Assembly (NCBI GenBank): GCA_043806635.1
Contig: JAZDGT010000038.1
Span: 14,641-78,640, forward strand
Reading direction: 5' to 3'
Length of the DNA stretch: 64,000 bases
Origin: Methanobacteriota archaeon
GTDB lineage: Archaea > Thermoplasmatota > E2 > DHVEG-1
The notes beneath the pieces were generated by a model. The model saw nothing but the letters and a program-made list of their open reading frames with translations, had not been told where the DNA came from and searched no databases. Position numbers and translations under genes: made by a program. Shown in pieces: positions 7,455 to 47,550 of the stretch (position 1 is its first letter; each line of letters opens with the position of its first letter).

Positions 7455-7472
7455 CACTAAAAAAAACATTAC

Positions 7473-9881: not shown

Positions 9882-10028
9882 GATAGAAACCTGCTTCGGT
9901 CTACCACGAAGTATACTGAGGATCCCCCAGGGGGGCAAACCATTCTGTTATATCTTTGAATCTCTATTTATAATTTAGCATAATTATAAAAAAACAGTTT
10001 TAGAAAAAGAGGATGTCCTCTGTTGTGT

Positions 10029-25114: not shown

Positions 25115-28100
25115 TTATTTTATTGTGAATTGGTTGAGTTCACCAGTTGTTTTGTTTAGAGAAACCGTGAAAACGGTGCCATTCGGATGATTAAAGACGA
25201 TGATCATGGTATTTACTGTATAGGTTGGTGTTTTGAGAACAGCGGACTCCGTAAACGTTTGATCTAATTCTGTGGGGTCGTATCGTAATACGTCATGAAC
25301 CAGTTGTTGTGCTTTACTGATGTAGATATTATTGAGTTGGGTGGTTTGTTTGTTTTTCTGCGTGGTTTGCACTTGTTTTATCTCATCTTTTGTGAACCCG
25401 TGTGGTTTGGCTGTATTCAACGTTAGCAGAGTTGTGTCTACTGGTGGACTATTTTGTGGTGGATCCGTGATCACTACGTATTTGTTATCGTAGTAATCAT
25501 CAGGAACGTTTAGTCGTTGGAAATAGGTGTTGGTGAAGTATTCTGCGGTGACGTAGGTGTTATCCCCTAGACCGCCCGTGCTCGGATCATTCACCCAGAA
25601 CCCGTAGATTGTTACTGGTCCGTTGAGGAGTTCATGATCACCAGGAATACTCGTATCCCACATACTGCGATTCGTATGAATACCGCGGATCACCATCCAA
25701 TGGTTGTAGTCTCCACCGGTGGGGACTGCGATCGGGACGTGATACGGATGACCCAGTTTCGGTGCATCCACTATTCTGTGTTCGTTTGATCCGCTGATGT
25801 TGTAATCTAGCCAGATCACTGCGCTCTTCAACGCATCCACTGCTTGATCATGTGCAGAGGGGTTGAAGAAGTACCCATAGATCCACCCATTCTGGTAATC
25901 GTTTATTTCGGTGTTCAAGCCACCGCAGAGTTCACTGGTGTTGATCCTGTCTCCACCGCTGTAGTTGTCGTAGAAGATTTGCTCGTTATAGAGGTCTTGT
26001 GGTTGGGGGTAGATGGTGTTGTTCCACATGCAATAATCAAGCATCTGCTTCATCACCATCGCACCACTGTCCACCTGGGATAAATAATAGGGGAAGCTTT
26101 TCAAGTCACGATAATGGATGTCTAAGATAAGATCGAGGTGGATACACCCTGACAGCAAATCATTTCGAGTGACGATGTGCTCGCTGACATTAATATTTTC
26201 TTCGTCATCCTTTGCTATGATTCGAAGAGGATCGGAGATGTTTATGATATCTCCGACATCGAAAATACGAGCATAGTGATGATTTATTGTTTCAGCTTGC
26301 CATCGCTGACCCGTATTCAGGTTAACAATATTGACGACGAGATTATCAACTGGTGTCATGTTAACGTAGTGACATACTCCTGAGATTGAGAATCCCCATG
26401 GTTTCATTAATGGGTACATATCAATATTATTATCTCCTGTGATATTGTAGGGGATGTCTCCGATGCCATCGCCTCCTGAAATGTTTTGATTAGGACCCGA
26501 GAACCGATCACTACCATCATAGTCAGACCAGTAGTTGCCACCAGAAGGATATTCTAAGTTCCAGGAATTAGAATAAGGATCAATTGCATCTCGGGTATTA
26601 TTTATAAAGTTATTATGAAAAATAACGTTGGTATAAGAATTATCTGTTAAATCAATGCCTTGTATATTTTCTGTGATTTTATTCTTTGAGATAGTGTTGT
26701 TATTACTCGCACCTAAAAATATTGCTATACCATTTTCTGAAAGGGTATTTTCGATGATTTGATTGATATCAGAATCATAGCAGTATATTCCATATCCATT
26801 ACTTGAAAGAGTATTGTTTATCAAAGTATTATTGTCACTCGCTTGAATACCAATTCCAAATTCACTATTGCTTAAGATATTGCTTTTTGAAATATTGTTC
26901 CTATCTGACAAATAAATATTAGCACCACATGAATTATTTGACATGATTAATTCCATAAAAAAATTATTATCGGATTGTATCAGATAGATACCAAATCCAT
27001 TATTTTTTAAAGAGATTCCTGATATTGAGGAATTATGTGTATTTAAAAGTTCTATGCCCACTGTTGTATTGGATAAATCTTGGTTTTGAATCGTAATGTT
27101 ATAACAATCTAATAATATGATTTGTCCTACAATTTCGTCTAAAATTGTATCTGACACATTCATAAGATAAATAAGAGGCTTATCATTCACTGTATTGTTA
27201 AAGACTATATTTTTTTCCAAACTAAAAACAAAGAGTCCGGTATGAACGAAGATATTCTCGATGATGGTATTGTTGGCAGATCCTAGATGTATACCTTCAA
27301 AAATATTTAGGTATATATTTTTTATAATAGTGTTATTTTCTGAGGATGAAAGAAATATACCTGTAGTGGTGTTAATAAAAACGTTATCTGAAATAGTATT
27401 ATTGTTAGAATTATGAGGATATACACCATACCAACTGTTACTGATTGTAAATGTGCTGATATGAACACCATCAACAGTTATTCGGATACCTGCTCCGCTT
27501 TCCTCGCTGTCGATAATCGTGTTATTTTTATCTTCACCTGTCAAATTTATTGTCTTGTTGATAACCAAATGTTCATAATATATTCCGTTATAAACAAAGA
27601 CTATATCACCAGTTGTTGCATTATTTATTCCTTCTTGGATTGTTCGAACATGCGTTTCATCATACCATTCAGGGGAAGCATCATCATCAACATACACTAT
27701 AGATTGAATGTGTAGTTCTTCCTCCTCTCCAAATGTTGTAAAAGAGTCTGGATCATTTTGATTCTTGTATTCTGTCGATATCCACGCATAACTACGCGTC
27801 GTGTTCGAGATACGTATTTCGTCAAGTAAACCACCATACAGGTAAGTACTCACCGCGTCCCATCGTGCGATACTCGCACGGTTCACTAGAGGAGCATCTA
27901 CAACGTTGGTGTTGTTTCCCCTCCAGACACCATCAATAAAAAAACGATGATCCGTACGGCTATAAGACACACCGACAGCATGATGCCAAGCTGAATCACG
28001 ATATTGTCCTGCAGGAGTAATCTCCGCTTCTTGACCACCATTTCGAATATTCCAACGGAGTAGTCCACTACCAAAATATATCTGTGCCCTCTTCGAACTA

Positions 28101-31100
28101 TCACTTGAATCACCTTGGTACACCATTGTCATACTGTTATCAGTTGATCCTGTTCTGAACCAGCATTCAAACGTAAACGGATACTGCTCCACTGTCCCCA
28201 TATCAGGGAGATTAACATAATCATTACTCCCATCAAACCCTACTGCTGTACCGATTTTTCCTTCCTCATTATACATGATGCCACCAGATTGTATTCCATC
28301 GTTATGGTGTCTAGAAGAATCAGAAAGAACTCCAGATGGTTCTTCAAAATGTTGTACAAGATGATAACCAGCATCCCAGGTTCCTTCGACATTTTGTTGA
28401 TTCATACAAAACTTATTCCCATAATACAAATATAAAACAATATCATGTGATTGAGGTAAATACGGAATGTTTACCCAAGCAAAAAGTTCGCCGGTTAAAT
28501 CGGAATACGATTCGATTTCATGGTTGAGTTGAGAGCCATCATTGGTTGTAAAAACAATATCATCGCCATCCGGTTGAACATGCGATGTGTCCAAAGTGGT
28601 GTGTACAAAAATTGGGAAATTAAACAGATTTGAATCCACTTTCATATGATTTATCGAAATACTTTTTCTATATTGCCAGTTAGTATTCCACCATGGGCCC
28701 TCATAACCTGCTTCTTCAGTCGTGAACGACCAGAAAGGTCCAGAGGTAGACATACCATGATTATCCCAGGCGATGACCCTCCAGTAATAGGTGGTATTGT
28801 ACACTGTTGTCTCTGGATAATAAATGGTTGTTGTTTGATTACTGATTTCTTTTGATAATGGAAACTCGATTCCATAATACAAATCATAGGTAACCGTATC
28901 CTCAGGATCCGGGTCTCCACCAGTCCAGTTTAAATAAGTATCAATATTCACATTTACAGATCCATTAATGGGATCAGGGTTACTCGGTGGATACGGTGGA
29001 TTCGTAATCACTACTTGGAGCGCAGGTGAAAAGTCGCTTTCATGTCCGTACGTATTTTTTGCTTTCACTTTCACAGTATACACTCCAGGTGTGCTCCATG
29101 AGTGAGGAGTATTGACTATTATTCCAGATTGGTATTCTCCTGTCCATTCATCGACGATATCATTCCCATCCCAATCCCAACCATACATGATATTTTCATC
29201 ATATGGATCGAACGAAGATGTTGAATAATTATACAAATTGTTGGGAGAACCAAGAGTTGGTCCATCAGGTATATTTGGTACAGTTGGCGCCATTTGATCA
29301 TATTTATCAGGATATGCTGCAATCCATGATACCCAAGCGGTACCACCAAAATTTCCTTGATACTCCATGATAGAAATGGTAAACCCACTACTGGATGAAC
29401 TAAGGGGATATGAAATTGAAGAAGCAGTACTTCTTTCAGCATTGGTTACAACATGCGGGGAACTTGGAAATTGAATAGTGTATGATACCACGGTTTGATC
29501 TCTAATAAATGAGCACCGTGATTCGATTTTGAGGTTGGATTGTAGATCAACATATTGATTTGGATAGATAGCAATCCAGTACACCATTGCATTATAGACA
29601 GGATGATTATCGTGATCATTTAAGATTATAATAAAATTAGTCGCTTGAGCGTCCTTTACATTAGAAATAATTGGTACCCCATCTACATTTCCGTTTGTGA
29701 GTACAACTGGCGAAGCGGGAAAACTATGATTAAAATAAATTGTTGTATGATCACTATGTAAACCATATCCTGCTTCGATACGTAATTCCTGAGAATTCGA
29801 ATATTCGTCTGGATACATTGCAATCCAAAATACTTGTACATTTTGAACTTCAACACCGTTATGATCAATGAGAGCTAATCGAAATCCATCAGTTGTTACA
29901 TTCAAAGGACATGATATTACTGGTTTTTCGGTATCAATGGAATTCGCACAGGTAACAACACGTGGGGGAATTGGAAAATGAAAATTATAAGAGATATAAT
30001 CGTCATTATCAAATACTCCATTTCCTGTTTTGATAATAAGTCCGGATTCTGTGGTCACATTTTGGGTATTCCACTGACTTTCATCATTATAGATATCCTT
30101 TGCTTTTACTTTTAAACTAAATGTATCCATAGTAAACCAAGTATGATTTACCGTGATCATGAAATCAGAGTGATACGGACCAATCCATTCTGAAGATGAA
30201 TTGTCTCCCCAATCAATATAATAGTAAACGTCATCTAAATTGGGATCATTCGTCATAAAATAATAAGAATATTCCTCATCTTTGTTTAAAACGGATGGAC
30301 CAATGATTGTTGGTTTTATTGGCGGATCATTGATTCCAGTTACGTTAATTATCTCTATATGAGTCTGTTGGTAACCATCATTATCACCAATTGTCAACTC
30401 CACCAGATATTGATCGTATTGTGAATAATTATGAATTGGGCAGACCCCAGTACTATTTGTTCCATCGCTGAACTCCCAATGATACCATTCGATTAAACCA
30501 TCTCTATCATAGGAGGAAGTGGCATTAAACATTACCGTAAAATTACTGATGATGTAACTGAAATTCGCGACAGGTCTATTTTTGCCCCATTCATATATCA
30601 ATGGATATCGATCTTGGCGACTTCCACCTGAAATATTATGGGGTGTTTCTCCAAGACCATCAAAATCAGTATCATGTCCAGTATAATCATCCCAATAGTT
30701 ACCCCCATCAGGGAAACCGTCATCCCAAACATTATACAGATTACTGTCTCTTGCATTTATATTATTGTTTACAAAATTATTGTGATAAACATGATTATTA
30801 GAAGTGCCACTTTCTAGGATGACGCCACCTTCTCTACTATTTAAAAACATATTCTGATAAATAAAATGGTTAACAGAACGAGCTCCAATAGATACACACC
30901 TGTTATTATTAAAGAAATAATTTTGGATTACGTAATTACTTGAACTTTCAGTAAAACTAAGACCATTTCCAGTATTATTACTAAAAACATTGTTCATGAA
31001 GATGTTGCCGCCACTACTAAATGCGTATACGCCATCTCCACCGTTACTTTCGAATGTATTATTAGAAATAGTATTTCCACTATTTGAACTCCTCATGTTA

Positions 31101-33025
31101 ATGCCGCAGTTTCTATTATTTATAATGATATTATTAGAAATGAAATTGTGACTAGAACCCTCCATGTATATCGCGACGATATTGTTCACCATTTTATTTC
31201 CGACAATGATATTATTGTCAGAATCGATTCCCCATCTCCCACTCTCCACTCCTGAATCACCATAGATATAGTTTCCACTATTTTGCATGGTAAAACCACT
31301 AATGTTCACACCACTACTTGTCCTGAGAGCAATCGCACTAGCAACCCCATTAGCATCAATTATGGTACCATCCCTATTTTCCCCGCGAAGTTTAATTGAT
31401 TTGTTGACAATCACATTTTCATAATACGTCCCATTGAACACAAATACAGTACCTCCAACACGTACACCAACTAAACTATGCTGAATACTATTAAAATGAT
31501 CATAATCCCATCCTGGTGTTGATTCATTATAATCATCGTCGACATATACGATCTCATACAAATATCTCTCAGTAGTAAATCGCCAAATAGGACTTATCGA
31601 AAAGGAACCATGATTATCCCAAGCTTTAACCATCCAATAGTACAAAGTACTATAATTCATTGGCCCAGGATCATATGTTAATTCAGATTGATTATTTACA
31701 ACCTGTGGCGGAGGATAAATGGTTCCAAAATAAACATCGTAGGTCACGATATCATCAGGATCAGGATCACCACCAAACCAGCTTAAATTCATAGTGACGT
31801 TCACACCAGTTGCATTATCCTGCGGAAGAGGTCCACCAGAGATATACGGCGGATAATTATCCCCAGGAAATTGTTCTTCATACCCAAACAATACGAACGA
31901 ATCAGGATCATTCATATTCTTATATTCAGTAGAAATCCATGGATAACTCCGCGTAACATTTGATATACGTACCTCGTCAATCCTTCCATTAAAAAAATAT
32001 TCACTCATAGGATTCCATTTTCCAATACTTGCACAATCTACTTCTGGAGCTGGAGCCACTCGCGTAGTACTGTTTCCTTTCCATACACCATCAACAAACA
32101 AACGATGTTGATCATTCTGATTACATACACCAACAACATGATGCCAATGATCATCACGATATTCCCCCCCAGGAGAAAAATCAACTTGTTGACCAGCATT
32201 ATTTCTTATATTCCATCGAAGAGTACCCCCACTAAAATAAAGCTGCACCCGGACAGCTGTATCACCTGATCTCCCCTGATACACCATCGTCATATCATTA
32301 TCAGTCGAAGATGTATTAAACCAACATTCAAACGTAAACGGATACTGCTCCACCGTCCCCATATCCGGAAGAGCAACATAATCATCCACCCCATCAAAAC
32401 CTGACCCACTGGATATCTTCCCCTCTGAACCATACGTGACACCACCCGATTGCACGCCATCATTATGATAGAACGTAGAATCAAAAAACGTTCCAGCCGA
32501 CTCTTCAAAATGTTGCACAAGATGAAAATCAGCATCCCAGGTATTCTCCATATTTTGCTGATTATCACAGGATGGGTTCCCATAATACATAATAAAAAAA
32601 GTGTCAAGGGAATCACTTAACGTTGGTACATTCACCCACGCAACAAGCTCACCCGACATCGAATTATATGATTCAATCTCGTGATTCATTTTCGATCCAT
32701 TCGTCATGATAAAAACAATATCACCACCATCAGATTGAACTTTTGTTGGGTCTACTATTGTTTTTATTAAGACGGGATAGTTTGATAGTGAACCATCCAC
32801 TTTTGTATGATTAATAAGCACCATTTTCCTGTATTGCCAGCTTTCATTCCACCACGTACTTCGCTCATTCGTGAATGAATAAATAAACGATGATTGTTCA
32901 GCAACCGAATTGTTCTGAACCGTTTGTTTTGTATTAGAACTCGTGGCAGGCAAAACATTTGTGCCGATTAATAAGAGAACAACGAGTATCATCACACTGT
33001 TCTTGCATACCTTTATCTTATTCAT
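25115..33025 (-). CDS. Giant secreted surface/adhesin-like protein 1 (2636 aa)
   Basis: Signal peptide. Two WWN.sWqYRK...LNHEIESY (DUF2341-like) plus LamG-like modules (~31873-32857 and ~27720-28696). FN3-like units (GGDPDPDD..TYDVY..YYW.v.AWDNHG). Two parallel beta-helix (NosD/PbH1-like) repeat tracts. PKD-like units (WDWGD/EFSDG). Three H-type-lectin-like units (...WIA.YP..Y, ~29290-30040). C-terminal module shared with giant 2. Very many N-x-S/T sequons. Confidence 0.85.
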   Translation of the reverse strand: MNKIKVCKNSVMILVVLLLIGTNVLPATSSNTKQTVQNNSVAEQSSFIYSFTNERSTWWNESWQYRKMVLINHTKVDGSLSNYPVLIKTIVDPTKVQSDGGDIVFIMTNGSKMNHEIESYNSMSGELVAWVNVPTLSDSLDTFFIMYYGNPSCDNQQNMENTWDADFHLVQHFEESAGTFFDSTFYHNDGVQSGGVTYGSEGKISSGSGFDGVDDYVALPDMGTVEQYPFTFECWFNTSSTDNDMTMVYQGRSGDTAVRVQLYFSGGTLRWNIRNNAGQQVDFSPGGEYRDDHWHHVVGVCNQNDQHRLFVDGVWKGNSTTRVAPAPEVDCASIGKWNPMSEYFFNGRIDEVRISNVTRSYPWISTEYKNMNDPDSFVLFGYEEQFPGDNYPPYISGGPLPQDNATGVNVTMNLSWFGGDPDPDDIVTYDVYFGTIYPPPQVVNNQSELTYDPGPMNYSTLYYWMVKAWDNHGSFSISPIWRFTTERYLYEIVYVDDDYNESTPGWDYDHFNSIQHSLVGVRVGGTVFVFNGTYYENVIVNKSIKLRGENRDGTIIDANGVASAIALRTSSGVNISGFTMQNSGNYIYGDSGVESGRWGIDSDNNIIVGNKMVNNIVAIYMEGSSHNFISNNIIINNRNCGINMRSSNSGNTISNNTFESNGGDGVYAFSSGGNIFMNNVFSNNTGNGLSFTESSSNYVIQNYFFNNNRCVSIGARSVNHFIYQNMFLNSREGGVILESGTSNNHVYHNNFVNNNINARDSNLYNVWDDGFPDGGNYWDDYTGHDTDFDGLGETPHNISGGSRQDRYPLIYEWGKNRPVANFSYIISNFTVMFNATSSYDRDGLIEWYHWEFSDGTNSTGVCPIHNYSQYDQYLVELTIGDNDGYQQTHIEIINVTGINDPPIKPTIIGPSVLNKDEEYSYYFMTNDPNLDDVYYYIDWGDNSSSEWIGPYHSDFMITVNHTWFTMDTFSLKVKAKDIYNDESQWNTQNVTTESGLIIKTGNGVFDNDDYISYNFHFPIPPRVVTCANSIDTEKPVISCPLNVTTDGFRLALIDHNGVEVQNVQVFWIAMYPDEYSNSQELRIEAGYGLHSDHTTIYFNHSFPASPVVLTNGNVDGVPIISNVKDAQATNFIIILNDHDNHPVYNAMVYWIAIYPNQYVDLQSNLKIESRCSFIRDQTVVSYTIQFPSSPHVVTNAERSTASSISYPLSSSSSGFTISIMEYQGNFGGTAWVSWIAAYPDKYDQMAPTVPNIPDGPTLGSPNNLYNYSTSSFDPYDENIMYGWDWDGNDIVDEWTGEYQSGIIVNTPHSWSTPGVYTVKVKAKNTYGHESDFSPALQVVITNPPYPPSNPDPINGSVNVNIDTYLNWTGGDPDPEDTVTYDLYYGIEFPLSKEISNQTTTIYYPETTVYNTTYYWRVIAWDNHGMSTSGPFWSFTTEEAGYEGPWWNTNWQYRKSISINHMKVDSNLFNFPIFVHTTLDTSHVQPDGDDIVFTTNDGSQLNHEIESYSDLTGELFAWVNIPYLPQSHDIVLYLYYGNKFCMNQQNVEGTWDAGYHLVQHFEEPSGVLSDSSRHHNDGIQSGGIMYNEEGKIGTAVGFDGSNDYVNLPDMGTVEQYPFTFECWFRTGSTDNSMTMVYQGDSSDSSKRAQIYFGSGLLRWNIRNGGQEAEITPAGQYRDSAWHHAVGVSYSRTDHRFFIDGVWRGNNTNVVDAPLVNRASIARWDAVSTYLYGGLLDEIRISNTTRSYAWISTEYKNQNDPDSFTTFGEEEELHIQSIVYVDDDASPEWYDETHVRTIQEGINNATTGDIVFVYNGIYYEHLVINKTINLTGEDKNNTIIDSEESGAGIRITVDGVHISTFTISNSWYGVYPHNSNNNTISDNVFINTTTGIFLSSSENNTIIKNIYLNIFEGIHLGSANNTIIENIFVHTGLFVFSLEKNIVFNNTVNDKPLIYLMNVSDTILDEIVGQIILLDCYNITIQNQDLSNTTVGIELLNTHNSSISGISLKNNGFGIYLIQSDNNFFMELIMSNNSCGANIYLSDRNNISKSNILSNSEFGIGIQASDNNTLINNTLSSNGYGIYCYDSDINQIIENTLSENGIAIFLGASNNNTISKNKITENIQGIDLTDNSYTNVIFHNNFINNTRDAIDPYSNSWNLEYPSGGNYWSDYDGSDRFSGPNQNISGGDGIGDIPYNITGDNNIDMYPLMKPWGFSISGVCHYVNMTPVDNLVVNIVNLNTGQRWQAETINHHYARIFDVGDIINISDPLRIIAKDDEENINVSEHIVTRNDLLSGCIHLDLILDIHYRDLKSFPYYLSQVDSGAMVMKQMLDYCMWNNTIYPQPQDLYNEQIFYDNYSGGDRINTSELCGGLNTEINDYQNGWIYGYFFNPSAHDQAVDALKSAVIWLDYNISGSNEHRIVDAPKLGHPYHVPIAVPTGGDYNHWMVIRGIHTNRSMWDTSIPGDHELLNGPVTIYGFWVNDPSTGGLGDNTYVTAEYFTNTYFQRLNVPDDYYDNKYVVITDPPQNSPPVDTTLLTLNTAKPHGFTKDEIKQVQTTQKNKQTTQLNNIYISKAQQLVHDVLRYDPTELDQTFTESAVLKTPTYTVNTMIIVFNHPNGTVFTVSLNKTTGELNQFTIK
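25134..26400. repeat. 3'-terminal repeat copy A, shared by the two giant genes
   Basis: Aligns to 33241-34505 at a constant offset of 8107 nt. Nearly identical over the first ~470 nt, with only scattered substitutions by eye, then progressively more diverged. Confidence 0.8.
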
Positions 33026-33200: not shown

Positions 33201-36200
33201 TTATTTTTTTATTTGATTTTTTTCATTTATTGAAAATTGTTTGAGTTCACCAGTTGTTTTGTTTAGAGAAACCGTGAAAACGGTGCCATTCGGATGATTA
33301 AAGATTATAATCACAGTGTTTCCCTTGTAGGTTGGTGTTTTGAGAACAGTGGACTCTGTAAACGTTTGATCTAATTCTGTGGGGTCGTATCGTAATACGT
33401 CATGAACCAGTTGTTGTGCTTTACTGATGTAGATAGTATTGAGTTGGGTTGTTTGTTTGTTTTTCTGGGTGGTTTGCACTTGTTTTATCTCATCTTTTGT
33501 GAATCCTTGTGGGTTGGCTGTATTCAATGTTAGCAGAGTTGTGTCTACTGGTGGACTATTTTGTGGTGGATCTGTGATCACTACGTATTTGTTGTTGTAG
33601 TAATCCCCTGGTGTGTTTAATGGTTGGAAATACGCGGTGGTGAAGTACTCTGCGGTGACATAGGTGTTTTCACCTAATCCGCCCGTACTTGGGTCATTCA
33701 TCCAGAATCCATAGATCGTGATCGGGCCGTTGATCAGGTGATGATCACCTGGTACACTGGAGTCCCACATGCTGCGGTTCGTGTGTATCCCACGGATCGT
33801 CATCCAGTGATTATAGTTCCCACCAGTTGGTACTGCGATGGGGACGTGATACGGGTGACCAAGTTTTGGGACATCAACGAGTCTATGCTCGTTTGATCCG
33901 CTGATGTTGTAGTCCAGCCAGATGACCGCGCTTTTTAACGCATCCAGTGCCTGGTCTTGTGCTGATGGTGAGAAGAAGTACCCGTAGATCCACCCGTTCT
34001 GATAATCGTTTATTTCGGTGTTCAACCCACTGCAGAGTTCACTGGTGTTGATCCAGTCTCCGCCACTGTAGTTGTTGTAGATGGTTTGCTCGCTGTAGAG
34101 GTCTTGTGGTTGGGGGTAGATGGTGCTGTTCCACATGAGGTAATCCATCATTTGTTTCATCACCATCGCGCCACTGTTCACTTGCGATAGGTAGTATGGG
34201 AAGTGTTTCAAATCCCGGTAGTGGATATCAAGCACAGGATTTATAGTGATGATTCCTTCTTCGAAATCAGATACTGTGGTAATATAATCAGTGACATTCA
34301 CTGATTCGTTTTGGTCCCGTGCGATGATTCTCAGAACATCTCCCACTGTTATCTGAGTGTCTCTCAAAAGTTCCAAACTATAGTAATTACCATTGGTGTC
34401 TGCCATCCAGTGCAATCCAGCGTTTAAGTTGATGATCTCTACGTTTACTGGGTTCACCTCGTACCCGTTTCTATAGGAACAATATCCATTAATGATGATC
34501 GGAGTTGGAATCCCAATTTGAAAACTCAACACAGGCGTACAATTTTTATTTCCACTCAAGTCAACATAGAAAATTCTCCAACCAACCGTGGTTCCATTAG
34601 GTATCTCAGGGTTTTGCCAAGTGAAGTTCGTCCACACCCATTCACCAGGTCCCGTGTAGAGATCCATCGGTGAACCGTAGGCATAGACACTTTTCGTCTC
34701 ATCACCAACACTTGTGAATACCGTTGGCTGAGTTATCATGTTATATTCTGTTCGTATCCACGTGTTGTTTCGGGCACTATTTGAGACGTGGATCTCGTCG
34801 ATTTTTCCGTTCATCCAATAGCTATTCAAGTTAGACATACCAATGTCAAATCCGGTTGCAGGATTCACTGTACCCGTGAAGAATGTACCAGCTTCATATA
34901 CACCGTTGACAAAAATATCTAATAAATTCGTATCCGCGTTCACTCGAGAGCAGACGTAATACCATTGTGGGTTCGACGGATTTACAGCAGTATGACTATA
35001 ACAGACTGGGACACTACTTGCTGTGCGCGTCCGTGCTTTAAATGTTTCATTGGTCCAGACGAGTAACGAGACGCTTACGTCACTGTGACTCTCAAATAGG
35101 TATTTGCGTTGTCCTGCATTCCCATCAACATAGACCCATGCACTCGCGGTATGAGAACCATCAGTTAATAATTGGAATGCATCAGCTTTCAAATAATCGT
35201 TGACACCGTCGAAATCAACGCAGGTGCCTATTTTCCCTGGTTGATTAAATAATGGATTCCCACCTGCGCTGGTGATATCCCAATGATTACTTGTACTATC
35301 CTTCAAATTGGGTATCCCTACCCCGTCAAGATGATGTACCATTGCATACCCGTTACTCCAAGCGCCCTCTGAATTTTCTTGATTCGCACAATTTGGATTT
35401 CCATAGTACAGATACAATACGGTATCAGTAGTTGGACTCAAAAACGGTACTTTCACCCAAACGACCAACTCACCAGTCGTACTATTATACGATTCAATTT
35501 CGTGGTTCAATTGGACAGTATTTGTCTGATCAATAAAGACAAAATCATTACCGTTCTCCTGTGCATGGTTAATGAAATTCGGTGATGTTGTTGAGATAAA
35601 GACGGGGAAATCCGTTAGAGAACCCGGGATAAGGGTATGATTGATTAGAATTGGTTTCTGATATCTCCAGTTTGTATTCCACCATTCTCCACCAGAATAA
35701 TTAAACCAGTATCCTGACTCGTTTGTTGATAGATACGCGTAATCAAGACCTGCATTGTCTCTCCCCTGAGAATATAAGGAATTATATGTTCCTGGCGGGA
35801 CGAGTGTGTGATTTTGTCCTTGATTTCGCCATTCTGGTGGCGTGATATCAATAGTTTTAAACCACCAGATTGGTCCGCTTGTACTGAGGTTGTCAGGAGA
35901 TTTATCCCAAGCAGTAATCTGCCAGTAATATGTCGTATTATAGTTCATCGTTTCAGGATTATATGTTGTCGTGGTTTGATTTGAAACCATCTTTAGGGGC
36001 GGATTAATAGTACCAAAATAGACGTCATAGGTGACTCTGTCACCCATATCTGGGTCTCCTCCTATCCAGTTGAGATTTGCCTCTACGTCCACATTGATGG
36101 TGTGATTATCAGGGTGTGGATTGCTTGGTTGGTACGGTGGGTGGTCCGTTGTGAAACACCAAAGTGGGCTTCTCGTTGATACATTATGATTATCCCAGGC

Positions 36201-39200
36201 AATAATCCTCCAATAATACGTTGTTCCAGAGAGGAGTAACCCAGGATCGTACATGGTACTGGTTTGATTTGATACATTTTTCTGTGGCGGGTTAGTGGTT
36301 CCAAAACAGACATCATACGTTATGGTATCGCCATAGTCTGGATCAGTTGAAGGTGACCAACTTAGATCGGTATTGAATGAAATGTTGATAGAGTTATTTA
36401 TTGGATGGGGGTTACTCGGTTGGGTAGGTGGGCTGTCCTGTTTTGTTGTAAAATGCCAGAGAGGACCAATAGTGGAAGCATTATACATGTCCCAGGCGAT
36501 AATTCGCCAATAATACGTGGTATTAAAATTAAGAATCCCGGGAGTATATGTTGTTTGAGTCTGATTACTACTGACTTTTTGCACTGATGGGGTTACTCCA
36601 AGGAATACATCATATGTGCAACTATCTCCATGGTTTGGATCACCGCCATTCCAAGTCAGTATGCTATTTGTTCGAACGTCAGTTGATTCATTCGCGGGAT
36701 TTGGATTGTTTGGGACACGTGGTGGAAAGTTTTCGTATGGCCCAAAACAATACAGTTTACTGTCACGTGATCCCACGTAGACTTTCCCGTTGGCAACTGC
36801 AGGGGAAGAATAAACAGTGAAACCAGTGGTATAGTTCCAAATCTTTTCTCCAGTAGTTGCGTTTAGACAATACACATTGTGATCATACGATCCAATGTAG
36901 ACTTTCCCATCAGCAACAGCAGGGGACGAGGATATACTCGCACCGGTTGTATAATTCCAGATTTGTTCCCCAGTTGAGGCATTTAGACAATACACCTTAT
37001 AACTTGCTGATCCAATGTAGACTTTCCCATCAACAACCGCGGGAGACGAATGAATCCAGTCAAAAGTGTTGTAATTCCAAATCTTAGCTCCAGTAGTTGC
37101 GTTTAGACAATACACATTGTGATCATACGATCCAATGTAGACTTTCCCGTTGGCAATGGCCGGGGATGATGTAACATCACCGCCTGTAGTGTAATTCCAT
37201 ATCTTTTCCCCAGTTGTTGCATTAAAGCAATATACGTTATTATCATCTGATCCAATGTAGACTTTCCCGTTGGCAACCGCTGGGGAAGAATAAATAGTGA
37301 AACCGATGGTGTAATTCCAAATCTTTGCCCCTGTTGATGCATTTATGCAGTATAATGCTCTGTTTGAACCAAAATACACTTTTTCATCGGCAACAGTTGG
37401 AGAAGACCATACTACGTGATTTGTGGTGTATTGCCAAATCCAATCTCCCGTGGATGCATTCAGGCAATACAAGTGTCCATCATCTGATCCAATGTAGACT
37501 TTTCCCTTGTAAACCACAGGGGAAGAATCCACACAATCGTACGTCCCATACGTCCAAATCTGTTCCCCAGTTGATGCATTTAAGCAATACACTCTATTGT
37601 TTGATGATCCAAAATACACTTTATTATTTACAGTAGCAGGTGATGAATAAATAGAAATTATTGCAGAATAATTCCATATTACCGTGTTTGTCTCTGGTGC
37701 AGTTGATGTGGAATATCCACTATGATATTGATCATGGTGAAACATCGACCACCAATCAATTTCAGGTTCATTCCAGCCATAAGGTTGCATAAAGGGGTAA
37801 CGATCTTGATTAACTCCACCAGAAATATTGTAGGGTGTATCACCAATCCCATCTGAATAATTCATATTTTGATTTGGCCCTGAAAAAAGATCACTACCAT
37901 TATAATCGTCCCAGTAATTCCCACCAGATGGATATCCGTCATCCCAAAGGTTATTTCCTAAACCTGAGAAGATATTTGCATTTATGGTATTATTAATAAA
38001 ATTGTTATGGTAAATTATGTTATTATTTGAACTTCTAAAATACATACCGACATAATTATTTACTACTAAATTTTCGAATAACTTGTTATCCTCTGAGTTA
38101 TAAATATTGAATCCATAGCCAGAACCATTTACCGCGCAAATATTCCTATAGATACTATTATTTGAAGAATTCATCAGCATTATTCCTGAATACCAAATTA
38201 CATTATTTATTACATTATTATAGATAAAATTATGATGTGAATTAGAGACAAAACATCCTGCCCATAAATTATCACCAAAAGTATTTTCCCGTATTGTACT
38301 AAATGAACAAAAATGAAGCTGTACACCAACAACCGTTCCTGAAAAATCCAAATCCTCTATAGTTATATTTGTACAGTTTGCTAAAATTACCTGTCCCGCA
38401 TCATTTGGAACAACGAGATTATTTTGGTTTTTATAATAACGTATCGGTTTAAAATTCACATAATTATTTTCAATAGTGTGCGTAGTGAAATGATCTATTG
38501 ATTCCCCACGAATAATGATTCCTGAATGATTAAACAAGTTATTCACAATAGTCAAATTTGAAGACGATTCAATATACAATCCTTCACATAAATCCAAGAT
38601 GATATTATTTTGAATCTCATTATTATTTGAATTTATAATGCAAATAGGTGTTGCTATATACTCAAACCTATTATCTTCGACAACATTGAAAAAAGAATGA
38701 TCGAGTACGATACCACACATGTTCGACGCACCCTTACCGTCTGTATTAAAACCAACAATATTTCCAGAAACAATATTATAGCTTGAGTTTACTATTTCGA
38801 TATTTGTTTCGGTATTATTTACAATGTTGTCAATAATTATGTTACTGTCGCTCGCAATGAATATCCCTGAATCATCCATTGTGTCTCCGCCATTTTGAAT
38901 AGTGAACCCCGAAACAATGACCATGGGGGAAATAATTCTCATCACCGTATCTCTACTACCATCTATAATTGTGTTATTTTTATCTTCACCAATCAGGTTG
39001 ATTGTTTTGTTTACGATTACATTTTCATTGTATGTTCCCGTATGCACATATATGATATCATGAATTGAAGCACGGTTTATTCCTTCTTGAATTGTGCGTA
39101 CATGGGTTTCATTGTACCAGGTTGGATCTGCATTGTCATCAACATAGATATCAGCTGGAGGAATGATTCCCCAGGGCATCATCAGAGGATAGTTATCTTG

Positions 39201-40943
39201 ATTAGCTCCTCCAGAAATATTATATGGAGAGTCACCAATGTCATCGGAACCAGTGATATTTTGTCCAGGACCAGAAAAAAGATCATTACCAGTGTAATTA
39301 GACCAATAATTCCCACAAATGGGATAATCAAGATTCCAAACATTTATTGCCGAATCAAAAGCATCTTGGTTATTATCAATAAAATTATTATGATAGATAA
39401 CATTGTTATAAGAAGACCAAATACCAACTCCTAAATCATTTAATCTAATCGTATTATTAAAAACGATATTACGATTTGCTTCAGATAGGTATATCCCCAA
39501 CCCACTATTGGAACTGATATTATTATTTGAAATAATATTATCGTTATTGTTACTAGAATCCTTGAATACTATTCCATGGCCGTTTCCGATAAAAATATTT
39601 TTCTTTATCGTATTATTACTAGAATAAGACCATAAGCCAGCATTCTGATCTAATATGATTTTATTTTCAGTAATCGTACTATCATTTGAATTTGACAGTA
39701 ACCAGATACCAATTGAAACATTAACCGTATTTTGAATTGTAAATTCTGAGATAGTAACGTATTCGGCGGAAATTGAGATGACCGTATAACCATTTTTTCC
39801 ATCAATAATTGTTGTATCTTTATCTTCACCCCGAAGAGTTATAGTCTTATTAATAATGATATTTTCAGTATACATCCCATGATAAACAAAAATAGTATTA
39901 CCTGATGTGGCATTATTGATGCCTTCTTGAATCGTTCGAACATGTGTCTTATCATACCATTCAAGTAATCCATTGCCATCAACAAAGATATCAATTAATG
40001 AATCTGAAGGCCAAGGATCCATTAAAGGATAATTATCTTGATTATTTCCACCCGCTACATTATATGAAGTGTCACCAAATCCATCAGCACCGGTTGCATT
40101 TTGTCCAGGGCCTGAAAAAAAATCCTTGCCAGTGTAATCGGACCAATAATTTCCGCCCCCTGATGAATATCCATTGTCCCAAGTGTTCGTATTATCATCA
40201 TATGCATTTTCAGTGTTATTGATGAAGTTATTATGATAAATTATATTTCCCGTACTGCCCAAAATATTTAGACCATTTTGATTAAAGGAGATACTGTTTC
40301 CGATAAAACTATTGAAATTTGAAGATGATTCAAGTCTTATGCCATAATGAGTATTGTTAAGAATAATATTTTTTTGCAAAATATTGTGAGTTGAAAGTCT
40401 TAATCTAATTCCATTTCTACAATTAACAATAATATTTTCAGAAACAGTAGTATATTGAGGATGGTGCATCTCGATTCCAATTTCACCATTCTCAATTACA
40501 TTCCCAAAAAAATTATTATAATCCGAACCCCACATGAAAACAGTTGAATATAAAGTATATCCCAGGGTTCTAATCGTAAATCCACTAACATTTACATTAT
40601 CTTCTCTGATATTGAGGACATAAGTACCACCACTATTAATTATTGTGTTATCTTTATTCTCGCCAATTAAATTAATTGATTTGGTTATAATTAAATGCTC
40701 ATTATAAGTTCCGTTAAATACAAAAATCGTATAACCATCTACTGCATCGTCAATTGCAGATTGAATACTAGTATAGTTATTTGGTCCACTTCCCCCAACA
40801 TATAATGTTTGTCCACGATCTAATAAAAATAATTTATCCGCATTGGTTTCAATTTTTTGTATACTTGCGACAACCGTTGATCCTAATAATATCGCTATTA
40901 TACTGAAAACCAAACATATTCCATATCGGTTATTTTTATTCAT
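33201..40943 (-). CDS. Giant secreted surface/adhesin-like protein 2 (about 2580 aa)
   Basis: Start MNKNNRYGICLVF at 40943 is preceded by GGGGGAAAAAGA. Three beta-helix tracts. An 8-bladed PQQ/BamB-like beta-propeller (~36740-37760). Three FN3-like units (~35870-36730). One DUF2341-like plus LamG-like module (~34695-35690). Same C-terminal module as giant 1. Confidence 0.85.
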   Translation of the reverse strand: MNKNNRYGICLVFSIIAILLGSTVVASIQKIETNADKLFLLDRGQTLYVGGSGPNNYTSIQSAIDDAVDGYTIFVFNGTYNEHLIITKSINLIGENKDNTIINSGGTYVLNIREDNVNVSGFTIRTLGYTLYSTVFMWGSDYNNFFGNVIENGEIGIEMHHPQYTTVSENIIVNCRNGIRLRLSTHNILQKNIILNNTHYGIRLESSSNFNSFIGNSISFNQNGLNILGSTGNIIYHNNFINNTENAYDDNTNTWDNGYSSGGGNYWSDYTGKDFFSGPGQNATGADGFGDTSYNVAGGNNQDNYPLMDPWPSDSLIDIFVDGNGLLEWYDKTHVRTIQEGINNATSGNTIFVYHGMYTENIIINKTITLRGEDKDTTIIDGKNGYTVISISAEYVTISEFTIQNTVNVSIGIWLLSNSNDSTITENKIILDQNAGLWSYSSNNTIKKNIFIGNGHGIVFKDSSNNNDNIISNNNISSNSGLGIYLSEANRNIVFNNTIRLNDLGVGIWSSYNNVIYHNNFIDNNQDAFDSAINVWNLDYPICGNYWSNYTGNDLFSGPGQNITGSDDIGDSPYNISGGANQDNYPLMMPWGIIPPADIYVDDNADPTWYNETHVRTIQEGINRASIHDIIYVHTGTYNENVIVNKTINLIGEDKNNTIIDGSRDTVMRIISPMVIVSGFTIQNGGDTMDDSGIFIASDSNIIIDNIVNNTETNIEIVNSSYNIVSGNIVGFNTDGKGASNMCGIVLDHSFFNVVEDNRFEYIATPICIINSNNNEIQNNIILDLCEGLYIESSSNLTIVNNLFNHSGIIIRGESIDHFTTHTIENNYVNFKPIRYYKNQNNLVVPNDAGQVILANCTNITIEDLDFSGTVVGVQLHFCSFSTIRENTFGDNLWAGCFVSNSHHNFIYNNVINNVIWYSGIMLMNSSNNSIYRNICAVNGSGYGFNIYNSEDNKLFENLVVNNYVGMYFRSSNNNIIYHNNFINNTINANIFSGLGNNLWDDGYPSGGNYWDDYNGSDLFSGPNQNMNYSDGIGDTPYNISGGVNQDRYPFMQPYGWNEPEIDWWSMFHHDQYHSGYSTSTAPETNTVIWNYSAIISIYSSPATVNNKVYFGSSNNRVYCLNASTGEQIWTYGTYDCVDSSPVVYKGKVYIGSDDGHLYCLNASTGDWIWQYTTNHVVWSSPTVADEKVYFGSNRALYCINASTGAKIWNYTIGFTIYSSPAVANGKVYIGSDDNNVYCFNATTGEKIWNYTTGGDVTSSPAIANGKVYIGSYDHNVYCLNATTGAKIWNYNTFDWIHSSPAVVDGKVYIGSASYKVYCLNASTGEQIWNYTTGASISSSPAVADGKVYIGSYDHNVYCLNATTGEKIWNYTTGFTVYSSPAVANGKVYVGSRDSKLYCFGPYENFPPRVPNNPNPANESTDVRTNSILTWNGGDPNHGDSCTYDVFLGVTPSVQKVSSNQTQTTYTPGILNFNTTYYWRIIAWDMYNASTIGPLWHFTTKQDSPPTQPSNPHPINNSINISFNTDLSWSPSTDPDYGDTITYDVCFGTTNPPQKNVSNQTSTMYDPGLLLSGTTYYWRIIAWDNHNVSTRSPLWCFTTDHPPYQPSNPHPDNHTINVDVEANLNWIGGDPDMGDRVTYDVYFGTINPPLKMVSNQTTTTYNPETMNYNTTYYWQITAWDKSPDNLSTSGPIWWFKTIDITPPEWRNQGQNHTLVPPGTYNSLYSQGRDNAGLDYAYLSTNESGYWFNYSGGEWWNTNWRYQKPILINHTLIPGSLTDFPVFISTTSPNFINHAQENGNDFVFIDQTNTVQLNHEIESYNSTTGELVVWVKVPFLSPTTDTVLYLYYGNPNCANQENSEGAWSNGYAMVHHLDGVGIPNLKDSTSNHWDITSAGGNPLFNQPGKIGTCVDFDGVNDYLKADAFQLLTDGSHTASAWVYVDGNAGQRKYLFESHSDVSVSLLVWTNETFKARTRTASSVPVCYSHTAVNPSNPQWYYVCSRVNADTNLLDIFVNGVYEAGTFFTGTVNPATGFDIGMSNLNSYWMNGKIDEIHVSNSARNNTWIRTEYNMITQPTVFTSVGDETKSVYAYGSPMDLYTGPGEWVWTNFTWQNPEIPNGTTVGWRIFYVDLSGNKNCTPVLSFQIGIPTPIIINGYCSYRNGYEVNPVNVEIINLNAGLHWMADTNGNYYSLELLRDTQITVGDVLRIIARDQNESVNVTDYITTVSDFEEGIITINPVLDIHYRDLKHFPYYLSQVNSGAMVMKQMMDYLMWNSTIYPQPQDLYSEQTIYNNYSGGDWINTSELCSGLNTEINDYQNGWIYGYFFSPSAQDQALDALKSAVIWLDYNISGSNEHRLVDVPKLGHPYHVPIAVPTGGNYNHWMTIRGIHTNRSMWDSSVPGDHHLINGPITIYGFWMNDPSTGGLGENTYVTAEYFTTAYFQPLNTPGDYYNNKYVVITDPPQNSPPVDTTLLTLNTANPQGFTKDEIKQVQTTQKNKQTTQLNTIYISKAQQLVHDVLRYDPTELDQTFTESTVLKTPTYKGNTVIIIFNHPNGTVFTVSLNKTTGELKQFSINEKNQIKK
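33241..34505. repeat. 3'-terminal repeat copy B, shared by the two giant genes
   Basis: See copy A. The encoded C-terminal ~340 aa (from DIHYRDLK to the end) are roughly nine-tenths identical by eye. Confidence 0.8.
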
Positions 40944-41015
40944 TCTTTTTCCCCCGATTAAGATAGAGATAAGATACAATAACTACTCATAAATATAAAC
41001 TTTTGTAATAAAAAT

Positions 41016-43290: not shown

Positions 43291-43621
43291 GTTAGCGGGT
43301 GTAGAAACCCCTTAAGTGGACGCACGTGCCATCTACTGACTACCCATCTGCGTTCTCAACCCCGTTAACCCTCTGAGCATCAGTAGTCTATGGTAAGGTT
43401 GCTCACTTCCGTGCCTCGCCCGGTTCCCACAGCAAAGACGCGACACATACTCCTCCGAGTATGCATCATCGTCACCCCTAATCCCAAAGGACAAGGTTTC
43501 ATAGGTAACAAATGGATCAATAGATGATCGTTACATCGCCTCGCAGATTCGACCCCAGCATATCGGCGATTTCTGGTTACAGGGAACGCCTAGCTCCCCG
43601 GTCTATTCTACACCTATCGCC
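43291..43621 (-). ncRNA. Signal recognition particle RNA (archaeal 7S RNA)
   Basis: The reverse complement contains CCCTGTAACCAGAAATCGCCGATATGCTGGGG (5' domain) and GGGAACCGGGCGAGGCACGGAAGTGAGCAACC (helix 8 with GGAA tetraloop and AGCA). Both closely resemble archaeal SRP RNA as I recall it. The 5' GGTGTAGAA pairs with the 3' TTCTACACC. An ATTTTTAT T-run follows the 3' end. The ends are approximate. Confidence 0.8.
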
Positions 43622-43922: not shown

Positions 43923-44128
43923 CCCTTGAAATATACAGGAGCATAAACTAATAGATATAAGAAAGTTATGATTCGTTCCAACCCCTTCCTAAGAAGCATT
44001 GAAGACCGTGGTATTCGCCCTTTTCTGTATATCAGCATATATTGATGAACTATGCAAACAACATATTCTTTTTTTTTATTTTTTATCATCCGTCACTTTC
44101 TTATACCGGCTCATACATTAAATCAATC

Positions 44129-44431
44129 ATGCTCACATCCAACAGTATCACAAAGATGCTGACTCAACATCAAAAAGAAATCCAACAATACGGCGTAAAA
44201 CGAATCGGGTTATTCGGTTCATATACAACAAATAACCACCATCGGAAAAGCGATATCGATATCCTCGTGGAGTTTCAAAAAGGAAAAAAAACGTTTGATA
44301 ACTACATGGAGTTAAAATTTTTTTTAGAAAAACTATTCAACCGCCCCGTTGACCTGGTCGTAAAAGAAGCACTAAAACTGGAGTTGAAACCTTCGATTTT
44401 AAAGAGTGTACGCTATGCCACGGGATTTTAG
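44129..44431 (+). CDS. Minimal nucleotidyltransferase (MNT) antitoxin of an MNT/HEPN pair
   Basis: GLFGSY...SDIDILVEF nucleotidyltransferase motif. About 100 aa from MLTSNS. Overlaps the HEPN gene by 17 nt. Confidence 0.8.
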   Translation: MLTSNSITKMLTQHQKEIQQYGVKRIGLFGSYTTNNHHRKSDIDILVEFQKGKKTFDNYMELKFFLEKLFNRPVDLVVKEALKLELKPSILKSVRYATGF

Positions 44432-44755
44432 CATCTTTCTCAAAGACATCCAGAATGCTATTCACCGAATCGACAAATACACCAAAGGTCTTTCATATGA
44501 AGAATTCTGCGAAAACCAGTTAATACAAGATGGGGTAGTACGGAATCTTGAAATCATCGGAGAAGCAGTAAAACATATCCCCAAAGAAGCACAAAATACC
44601 CTCAGATTGAATGGAAAAAGATAGCAGGATTACGAGATATACTTATACATGCGTATTTTGGGGTTGATCGAGGTATCGTCTGGGATATCATTAAAACCAA
44701 AACCCCGGTACTGAAGAAACAAGTTAGATTGATTTTGAACCAGAGAAAAAAATAA
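44415..44755 (+). pseudogene. HEPN (DUF86) toxin gene with a 1-nt frameshift in an A-run (~44593-44596)
   Basis: The first frame reads MPRDFSIFLKDIQNAIHRIDKY...RNLEIIGEAVKHIPKEAQ and then stops at 44622-44624. A shifted frame continues [33 protein letters not shown]...RKK to a stop at 44753-44755. The R-x4-H RNase motif lies downstream of the shift. Confidence 0.75.
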
Positions 44756-44836
44756 GAGTGATCTTCCGCGAGAGATAATCAATACAGATACGATATACGG
44801 GTGCTGATTTTTAAAAAAGATTATTGATTTTTTATA

Positions 44837-44880
44837 GAACAAACCCTTAAATAACAGGAGCAATATTGATTACTCTGGGG
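44837..44880 (+). promoter_or_regulatory. Conserved promoter/leader copy 1 of the small-protein family
   Basis: GAACAAACCCTTAAATAACAGGAGCAATATTGATTACTCTGGGG recurs almost unchanged at 47498-47543. It contains a TTAAATAA TATA-like box. The match is out of frame relative to the two ATGs, so the conservation is at nucleotide level. Confidence 0.55.
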
Positions 44881-44889
44881 AAAAGAGTT

Positions 44890-45297
44890 ATGCGGAAGAT
44901 ACTTACAATAGGAAGTATCGTAGCGGTTATAATTCTTGTTCTTACAACGTATCCATCGATTGTTAGTGCGCAAACAATTAAATCTGAAAATACAAAACAA
45001 GAAAAATTACCCACTATTTTACATTTATTAAGAACGAAATCAACTGTGCAATTTGGAGAAGGAATTTCGTTAATTATTCTTGCAATAAAATTTGCAATTT
45101 TTTTTATTATCTCACTTTTTTATTCTACTTTGGGAGCTATTGATCTTTTTACTTCACTCACTAATGCAGGAGTTTTAGGCGCATTGTTTATTATTTTAGT
45201 GACTCCACCTTTATGGTTATTAATATTTGTAGAGGCATTTTTAAACGCTCTCTTCGGATTAGCTTTTTCAGAAGGAAGTGGTTATTACTATCCGTAG
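44890..45297 (+). CDS. Small secreted/membrane protein family, member 1 (135 aa, multi-TM tail)
   Basis: MRKILTIGSIVAVIILVLTTYPSIVSAQTIKSEN signal peptide, then about 3 hydrophobic helices. Confidence 0.65.
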   Translation: MRKILTIGSIVAVIILVLTTYPSIVSAQTIKSENTKQEKLPTILHLLRTKSTVQFGEGISLIILAIKFAIFFIISLFYSTLGAIDLFTSLTNAGVLGALFIILVTPPLWLLIFVEAFLNALFGLAFSEGSGYYYP

Positions 45298-45313
45298 AAA
45301 TTTATGGAGGAAT

Positions 45314-45529
45314 ATGAACAAGAAAATCTTCATCGGAACAACCCTTGCTGTCATCATCGTGTTTGCGAGATTCAGTACTTTAGCAAGTGCACAATCAACT
45401 TCATTAAAAGACTCTCTATTAACTAAAATCAAAGCGAAGATTGATTGGAAACCAGGAGATATTATAGGTTCTATTCTCGGATTGATTGGTCTTATATTTT
45501 TAATTCTATTTGGTTGGATGTTCCCATAA
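45314..45529 (+). CDS. Small secreted/membrane protein family, member 2 (71 aa)
   Basis: MNKKIFIGTTLAVIIVFARFSTLASAQSTS signal. K-rich linker IKAKIDWKPGD. C-terminal TM IIGSILGLIGLIFLILFGWMFP. GGAGG lies 5 nt upstream. Confidence 0.7.
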   Translation: MNKKIFIGTTLAVIIVFARFSTLASAQSTSLKDSLLTKIKAKIDWKPGDIIGSILGLIGLIFLILFGWMFP

Positions 45530-45544
45530 ATTAGAGGAGAAGAG

Positions 45545-45811: not shown

Positions 45812-45824
45812 TAATTGATATAGT

Positions 45825-45860
45825 ATGAAAAGAAAGATAGTAACCGGAAGCATTCTCTAA
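45825..45860 (+). pseudogene. Truncated remnant of a family member (11 codons)
   Basis: ATGAAAAGAAAGATAGTAACCGGAAGCATTCTCTAA = MKRKIVTGSIL-stop. It mimics the start of member 3. Confidence 0.5.
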
Positions 45861-47543: not shown

Positions 47544-47550
47544 AGGTTTT

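Follow-up and report, generated by a model that had tools for sequence, protein, structure and literature searches.

In the papain-like peptidases of clan CA (9L5U, cathepsins L, V and K, cruzain), the nucleophile, the His and the Asn or Asp take set places in a common fold, with a Trp nearby. The same fold is kept, with catalysis lost, in the C39-like domain (CLD) of HlyB-type transporters, which binds the substrate, and the C39 domains themselves (ComA, PCAT1) form the cytoplasmic N-terminus of an ATP-binding cassette (ABC) transporter. A C-terminal cassette is described here whose middle domain is predicted to have this fold and which ends two adjacent giant genes, g1 and g2, of a Methanobacteriota archaeon. 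Both genes lie in a window of 64,000 nucleotides, which is the whole stretch of DNA analyzed (assembly GCA_043806635.1, contig JAZDGT010000038.1). The papain-like (clan CA) fold of the middle domain was well supported but not proven, the catalytic residues varied across a large family of secreted proteins, and the domain is tentatively read as a pseudo-protease.

When the module was compared with clan CA peptidases, the fold, the topology, the placement of the nucleophile, His and Asn-Asp positions and the nearby Trp were found in common, and some of its homologues carried the nucleophile motif 'CGP'. Nevertheless, it had neither sequence-profile similarity to these enzymes nor their conserved Cys-His dyad, and its core of ~229 aa has a helical insert and belongs to a C-terminal cassette of secreted multidomain proteins. 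The motif order of C39 domains (aromatic-Pro, x[C/S]G(P/A)A helix, H-hydrophobic strand, xDP) was also that of the module, and 'CGPA', the reading of its Cys-bearing forms, is found in many papain-like and C39 enzymes. However, the module was not detectably homologous to C39 by Pfam, hhalign or Foldseek, and it is extracellular and C-terminal, outside a double-glycine substrate context. The role proposed below is of the same kind as that of the CLD. SERA5-type pseudoproteases of Plasmodium resemble g1 and g2 in having a papain fold whose nucleophile position is Ser and whose His and Asn/Asp are retained, and their structures were weak Foldseek matches of the core (ranks 33-46). They differ in having no sequence relationship to the module, in lineage and in architecture, and in the module family the His is dispensable as well and the nucleophile site can be Thr or Ala.

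A second group of described systems comprises the C-terminal domain (CTD) by which gingipains use the type IX secretion system (T9SS), SLH, dockerin and PGF-CTERM. Like these, the cassette is a single C-terminal element, present in several copies per genome and on unrelated passengers that include gingipain-like C25 peptidases. Unlike them, it has three domains and a far greater length (~430 aa), occurs in both archaea and bacteria, and is itself succeeded by a genuine T9SS CTD in some homologues.

The cassette shared by g1 and g2

The tails of both giant proteins consisted of the same three parts, namely a beta-sandwich, a domain of predicted papain fold and, last, a small alpha/beta end domain preceded by a linker. 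The genes, the parts and the residues discussed below are located as follows.

25115-33025, minus strand: g1, giant surface protein, 2636 aa
26129-26404, minus strand: g1 aa 2208-2299, beta-sandwich, first cassette part (family profile match over aa 2208-2636; AF2 model; kept in homologues)
25442-26128, minus strand: g1 aa 2300-2528, core with predicted papain-like fold (AF2, Foldseek, dN/dS against g2)
26066-26068, minus strand: g1 Ser2320, predicted nucleophile position of the papain fold (AF2 topology, family column, hhalign against ComA)
25700-25702, minus strand: g1 His2442, canonical His position, variable in the family (AF2 topology, family column)
25586-25591, minus strand: g1 Asn2479-Asp2480 of GFWxNDP, position of the third triad residue (family column, AF2 topology)
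25118-25441, minus strand: g1 aa 2529-2636, linker followed by the small alpha/beta end domain, d1 (AF2)
33201-40979, minus strand: g2, giant surface protein, adjacent to g1
34236-34511, minus strand: g2 aa 2157-2248, cassette beta-sandwich (g1-g2 alignment, family profile)
33549-34235, minus strand: g2 aa 2249-2477, core with predicted papain-like fold (85-90% identity to the g1 core; family profile match)
34173-34175, minus strand: g2 Ser2269, nucleophile position
33807-33809, minus strand: g2 His2391, canonical His position
33693-33698, minus strand: g2 Asn2428-Asp2429 (GFWMNDP)
33204-33548, minus strand: g2 aa 2478-2592, linker and alpha/beta end domain (g1-g2 alignment)

The original prediction, made from the sequence of the window, had placed the shared module at 25115-26125. 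This stretch corresponds to the last two of the three parts and misses the upstream one, as the shared module starts with the beta-sandwich at g1 aa ~2208. All of the end motifs claimed for both giants were found in both. In g1 these are FPYYLSQV at aa 2311 (26072-26095), HVPIAVPTGG at 2429, IYGFW at 2473, KAQQLVHDVLRYDP at 2571 and FTVSLNKTTGEL at 2619; in g2 the same five start, in this order, at aa 2260, 2378, 2422, 2520 and 2568. The Ser codon given for g1 (26066-26068) was right, and that given for g2 (34174-34176) was one base out of frame, the true codon being 34173-34175. A Pro-rich segment, DPPQNSPP, closes the core part of g1, and the linker at the start of aa 2529-2636 comes after it. 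The beta-sandwich was all-beta in the AF2 model of the whole module (residues 1-81), with a predicted local distance difference test (pLDDT) score of about 78-91.

The sequences of g1 and g2 matched exactly the NCBI entries MFH1101422.1 and MFH1101423.1 (g2 being the latter), both named 'MAG: DUF2341 domain-containing protein [Methanobacteriota archaeon]', in which MAG denotes a metagenome-assembled genome. The open reading frame (ORF) of g2 obtained mechanically starts at a TTG at 40979, and the deposited product begins at Met13 (ATG 40941-40943), giving 2580 aa. The bodies of both proteins are built of NosD/beta-helix, PKD, DUF2341, LamG and PQQ-propeller domains. The lack of a C-terminal membrane anchor noted previously was borne out, since a C-terminal hydrophobic segment was found in neither protein and the N-terminal hydrophobic signal was the only such segment in each. 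N-x-S/T sequons were abundant (68 in g1 and 76 in g2).

Over the last ~340 aa, from the IHYRDLK motif to the end, g1 and g2 were about 85-90% identical, against ~35% over the remainder, a likeness well outside what chance would give. The papain-like core (226 codons) gave dN 0.080, dS 1.22 and dN/dS 0.065, and its similarity is hence that of an old divergence under very strong purifying selection. In the beta-sandwich (85 codons), these values were 0.76, 2.27 and 0.34, and in the DUF2341-LamG region (305 codons) dN was 0.65 with dS saturated and the ratio not computed; the homologous parts of the giants outside the core thus had dN of 0.65-0.76, compared with 0.08 within it. The cassette was the most strongly constrained section of both giants. 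The linker and end domain (last 111 codons) behaved differently, with dN 0.044, dS 0.18 and dN/dS 0.25. Since the 3' ~330 nt of the two genes (25118-25450 and 33204-33560) were 93-95% identical in DNA, and dS there was 0.18 vs 1.2 in the adjoining core, this alignment points to a recent gene conversion, probably restricted to the 3' gene ends.

Predicted fold of the middle domain and its relation to C39 and PepSY

The AF2 model of the whole module (411 aa) had a pLDDT of 78, with low confidence at residues 90-160, around the putative nucleophile helix, and its use in Foldseek gave nothing useful (best match 4pw1, of unknown function, TM 0.27). For these reasons, a model of the core only (g1 aa 2300-2528) was computed with a deeper alignment of 58 trimmed homologues, and it reached a pLDDT of 95.5 and a predicted TM score (pTM) of 0.92. 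When this model was searched against the PDB with Foldseek, 13 of the 15 top matches were titled papain-like Cys peptidases, with a top probability of 0.98. They included 9l5u, cathepsins L/V/K, cruzain, ZUP1 and bleomycin hydrolase, with Amb a 11 and SERA5 at lower ranks. The best match was 9l5u, a papain-like toxin (probability 0.97-0.98; TM 0.61-0.63 normalized to target length). The E-values of these matches were weak (about 1e-2, none <1e-3), and the same search of viral structures (BFVD) gave no match.

The residues of interest fell at characteristic places of the core model. S2320 opens the helix at 21-33, H2442 opens the strand at 143-152, and N2479-D2480 end the following strand, at 174-181. 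The model therefore has the nucleophile position at a helix N-terminus, the His position at a strand start and the Asn/Asp on the neighboring strand, as in papain-like topology. From this topology we infer the spatial adjacency of S2320, H2442 and D2480 as well as the geometry of the groove. The core was considered to have a papain-like (clan CA) fold, a prediction that is well supported but not proven. As to the papain-fold (C39-like) peptidase proposed originally, the fold agreed with AF2 and Foldseek, and so did Ser at the nucleophile position, S2320 being the first residue of the nucleophile helix and distant homologues having Cys there ('CGP'); the membership in the C39 family did not agree with profiles, Foldseek or hhalign.

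No match to Peptidase_C39 or C39_2 (PF03412, PF13529) was obtained at E<=10 for g1 and g2, or in a further survey of 36 members (26 searched at E<=1 and 10 more at E<=10). NCBIfam gave no C39 match either, the profile search of PDB sequences was empty, and no C39 structure was among the top 50 Foldseek matches of the core, though 8hf4, 3k8u, 4ry2, 6mpz and 3erv exist in the PDB. When the family profile was aligned by hhalign with ComA (the 8HF4 and 3K8U sequences), the probability was 0.8% over 14 columns, with a target profile of 2 sequences only. The sole aligned segment was the nucleophile helix, [S]GAMVMKQMLDY against D-C17-GVASLAMVFGYY of ComA, which places S2320 opposite Cys17. In addition, an 'xDP' motif closes the strand that follows the strand of the His position. 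There was no ABC-exporter fusion or neighborhood and no double-glycine context, as the module ends extracellular proteins with a Sec signal encoded near radB, diphthamide synthase and MCM. The motif resemblance to C39 was real but local, and C39 membership was not supported.

The end domain had been described as looking like a PepSY-type propeptide or inhibitor fold, an identity that was not demonstrated. Only one of 25 members matched PF03413 (E 0.054), the C-terminal sequence of the window proteins gave no PepSY match at E<=10, and a PDB profile search of the end domain returned noise. AF2 predicted d1 with pLDDT >90 as helices (321-332, 336-355, 362-367) and 3-4 strands (381-387, 393-399, 405-410), and no PepSY structure appeared in the top 50 of the whole-module Foldseek search. 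The predicted domain is like PepSY in being a small alpha+beta unit that ends in a '...tG.l' strand pattern, and unlike it in having no significant profile match. An extra last domain, d2, present in longer homologues and absent from the window, matched PepSY weakly (2/24 members, best E 0.0038), and d1 and d2 were unrelated by hhalign.

Distribution of the family and variation of its catalytic columns

A word-indexed search with the module yielded 24 homologues, and a hidden Markov model (HMM) search of 1.84 billion proteins with the alignment of those 24 gave 767 cluster representatives at E<=1e-3, which is a lower bound on the family size, and 255 at E<=1e-30. Hardly anything new came from a second word-indexed search, based on the core profile (21 fragments, each named 'hypothetical'). 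In their sources, the carriers are named 'hypothetical' or only after their other domains. Single sequences gave nothing in Pfam, NCBIfam and PDB-sequence searches, even at E<=10, and profiles of the whole module, the core and the end domains gave only noise against the same collections. A description of the module was not found in the literature searched; the 'C39-like' methanogen protein treated in a 2026 paper is a different one, with Q-C-H-N.

In about 130 of 143 long matches, the protein ended at most a few residues after the module, and an N-terminal hydrophobic signal was present in 81 of 104 full-length-looking members. The passengers were diverse. They comprised LamG/DUF2341, NosD, PQQ, PKD, FG-GAP, CARDB/DUF3344, InlB B-repeat and Kelch domains as well as proteases, namely gingipain C25 with its propeptide, subtilase S8 with its prodomain and an M6 InhA-like MAM domain. 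Stand-alone homologues, with a signal peptide and the module (~590 aa), were also observed. In six representatives, the module was followed by a tail of ~113 aa, and in the four scanned with Pfam (P0086, P0087, P0115 and P0151) this was in every case a T9SS-type sorting domain (Por_Secre_tail / FlgD_ig). Hence, the cassette is not a universal sorting signal. The corresponding domains (PF18962 / PF13860) had no match at the extreme C-terminus of g1 and g2. The passengers of the T9SS-tailed homologues included gingipain C25, subtilase S8 and Kelch propellers.

The module was present at 59 loci of GTDB species representatives, all of them in MAGs. The archaeal carriers belonged to Thermoplasmatales, 'Methanobacteriota', anaerobic methanotrophic archaea (ANME-1), Methanosarcinales/ANME-2, Argoarchaeum, Promethearchaeota and Micrarchaeota, and the bacterial ones to Phycisphaerae/Planctomycetota, Omnitrophota, Acidobacteria, Kiritimatiellae, Verrucomicrobiota and Dehalococcoidia. 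Multiple copies per genome were common, some in tandem like g1-g2, and several MAGs held 3-5 carriers; the MAG of the window itself had at least one more, the third being MFH1101207.1. Another tandem pair was observed in a Thermoplasmatales MAG, where two module genes (L006 and L016) are neighbors on contig CAZTFR010000043.1. A Cys-bearing stand-alone homologue (P0021) was located in a same-strand run of secreted-protein genes (locus L001, 1-17782, ENA contig NODE_33_length_76768). This run included CARDB/DUF3344, NosD, a dockerin-bearing CARDB protein and a Peptidase_C1 protein, with several unannotated proteins of 350-540 aa interspersed.

The columns of the putative catalytic residues varied widely across the family. 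At the nucleophile column (S2320), S was present in 64 members, T in 52, C in 32, A in 6 and N in 1, and the next residue was Gly in 149/155. The His column (H2442) had N in 102 and H in only 37, followed by R (8) and S (5), and the Gln column (Q2317) had E in 58, Q in 23, D in 17 and N in 12. By contrast, the N2479 column was N in 163/167 and the D2480 column D in 160/167, which made them the only near-universal polar pair. The other near-universal residues were W2443, R2447, G2448, G2475, W2477, P2481, Y2440 and Y2491. The Cys forms read 'CGPA', and 'CGP' occurred at the Ser column in distant homologues. All 32 of the Cys-bearing representatives had Asn in the His column, and in ~20 Cys-bearing genome loci this column was Asn, with one Arg, and never His. 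Even among relatives 45-60% identical to g1, the column held H, N, S or W. The other His residues that occur often (2426, 2429 and 2450) each varied among Cys-bearing members, and a metal site formed by these three was set aside, each being replaced in 10-25% of members.

Furthermore, five loci, titled Phycisphaerae/Phycisphaeraceae, Acidobacteria or Acanthopleuribacteraceae, read 'AGPA', in which Ala takes the nucleophile site, and kept the W and N-D motifs. The residue that precedes the nucleophile was variable (M/D/Y/N/W), so that there is no cleavage-site motif. The window proteins hold all of Q2317, S2320, H2442 and D2480, of which the Asp alone is conserved family-wide. The proposed Q/S/H/D(N) set was therefore not conserved as such: the Gln and His columns varied, the nucleophile was S/T/C/A, and the N-D pair was kept. 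Judged by the alignment, a canonical Cys-His dyad is absent from the family, and the Ser-His-Asp of g1 and g2 is not conserved in it.

Candidate functions, genomic setting and meaning

The original prediction had left three options, a Ser-nucleophile variant, a pseudo-protease binding domain and a self-processing module, of which the second fitted best. Because no family member has a conserved Cys-His pair, the middle domain is read here as a pseudo-protease whose papain fold would have been kept for binding or tethering and not for catalysis, in a cassette common to hundreds of secreted proteins. We adopt this reading tentatively, as a plausible one that falls somewhat short of an even call. 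The domain would have descended from a clan-CA (papain-like) cysteine-peptidase scaffold, and its former active-site groove would be lined by the near-invariant Y2440, W2443, R2447, W2477, N2479, D2480 and Y2491. This groove might bind a common partner, either a cell-envelope component or another surface protein, and such binding would tether or organize the upstream passenger. For giants without an anchor, the cassette would be the obvious candidate for what holds or organizes them at the cell surface.

Several observations weigh against a pseudo-protease of this kind. The nucleophile column was C, S or T in 148/155 members (95%) and was followed by an almost invariant Gly, which is tighter than a dead site needs; the three canonical positions are all occupied in g1 and g2, by Ser, His and Asp; and polar residues abound in the motifs GHPxHVP, RGxHT and GFWxNDP, as they would in an enzyme active site. 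The groove geometry rests on the topology of a predicted model. No conserved partner gene was found across the 59 loci in a shallow neighborhood analysis, in which the biggest neighbor clusters consisted of ORFs antisense to, or shadowing, the module genes. Finally, the separate T9SS sorting domain of some homologues indicates that the cassette does not universally serve as a tag for sorting or anchoring, and the existence of stand-alone forms suggests that the module has a function of its own.

Part of this evidence argues for an active, non-canonical enzyme, in which the helix N-terminus would supply a Ser, Thr or Cys nucleophile to cooperate with the invariant Asn-Asp pair and, in the subclade of the window, a Ser-His-Asp triad would have re-formed. 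It could process itself, mature or release its passenger, or act on an envelope component by hydrolysis or transfer. The near-universal N2479-D2480, the core omega of 0.065 and the many pro-enzyme passengers (C25 with propeptide, S8 with prodomain) are in line with this, and C/S/T interchange is typical of autoprocessing sites that act by N-O/N-S acyl shift. On the other hand, a conserved general base is missing, Cys never occurs with His, and W, S or N occupies the His site in relatives close to g1. The loci with Ala at the nucleophile, all titled bacterial, keep the remainder of the site intact, the residue before the nucleophile is variable, and we know of no papain fold with Thr as nucleophile. 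An enzyme of this type is consequently regarded as doubtful, although it deserves to be kept in view.

A purely structural cassette, acting without ligand as a folding nucleus, cap or oligomerization base of long extracellular proteins, by analogy with C-terminal intramolecular chaperone or cap domains, would account for its invariable place at the end of the folded units, or directly ahead of a sorting tag, for the many repeat-rich or beta-helical passengers and for the degenerate catalytic residues. It is improbable in our judgment, as stand-alone forms have no passenger, the passengers are of unrelated folds, globular proteases among them, and the strong constraint together with many conserved polar and aromatic residues of exposed type favors a specific interaction. 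Still less credible is a C39 or C39-like peptidase of the bacteriocin-processing type with Ser for Cys and, behind it, a PepSY domain as inhibitor or propeptide. The local likeness to the Cys17 segment of ComA, the xDP motif and the weak PepSY matches of d2 speak for it, but the profile and structure searches, the unconserved Gln and His columns, the lack of an ABC-transporter context and the absence of a PepSY signal in the window end domain make it very improbable. A polymorphic toxin, which the toxin matches 9l5u and 8ssm had brought to mind, was rejected because here a conserved C-terminus is combined with variable N-termini, there is no downstream immunity gene and the catalytic residues are degenerate.

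As regards the rest of the window, the giant genes are flanked by archaeal housekeeping genes encoding MCM with an archaeal winged helix, the DP2 and DP1 subunits of PolD, a RadB-like protein and diphthamide synthase. The G+C content of the giant genes (26000-32000 and 38000-40000) was 0.31-0.38, vs 0.44-0.47 in these flanks. The other features observed were the following.

43299-43613, minus strand: archaeal signal recognition particle (SRP) RNA (RF01857, 207 bits), immediately downstream of the MCM gene
48367-53265, minus strand: PolD DP2 (DNA polymerase II large subunit), containing an intein with a LAGLIDADG homing-endonuclease domain
53355-55088: DP1 small subunit, adjoining DP2
44000-48350: ~4.3 kb of low G+C (0.32-0.34 vs ~0.45 nearby) with short ORFs only (50-143 aa), mostly on the plus strand, which could be an integrated element or a small-gene cluster
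6001-10000: jump of GC skew from -0.34 to +0.45, with AT skew -0.39, over a superfamily 1 (SF1) helicase-like gene (7473-9938, minus strand)

The question addressed by these results is how giant adhesin-like proteins and secreted proteases are retained at the surface of uncultured archaea when they have no obvious anchor. Gingipain-like enzymes have been invoked for protein degradation in sediments, and the cassette is the one element common to such secreted proteases and to giants like g1 and g2. Neither Pfam nor NCBIfam has a model for it. In uncultured Thermoplasmatales-type archaea, ANME, other archaea, Planctomycetota and Omnitrophota, it may represent an unrecognized cross-domain display device for large extracellular proteins and proteases, built on a papain-derived tether or on a new, His-less catalytic type with Ser/Thr/Cys and Asn-Asp. 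This is an unlikely reading on present evidence; as a tether, the device may hold anchor-less giants on the surface, and in its catalytic form it may serve self-processing or covalent attachment. With the cassette defined, extracellular proteins of this class can be searched for by a marker, and a concrete domain is available for expression and testing. Its core would be a further case of a protease fold reused without the catalytic dyad, and if the Ser/Thr/Cys site were catalytic, it would represent an unusual mechanism for a papain fold.

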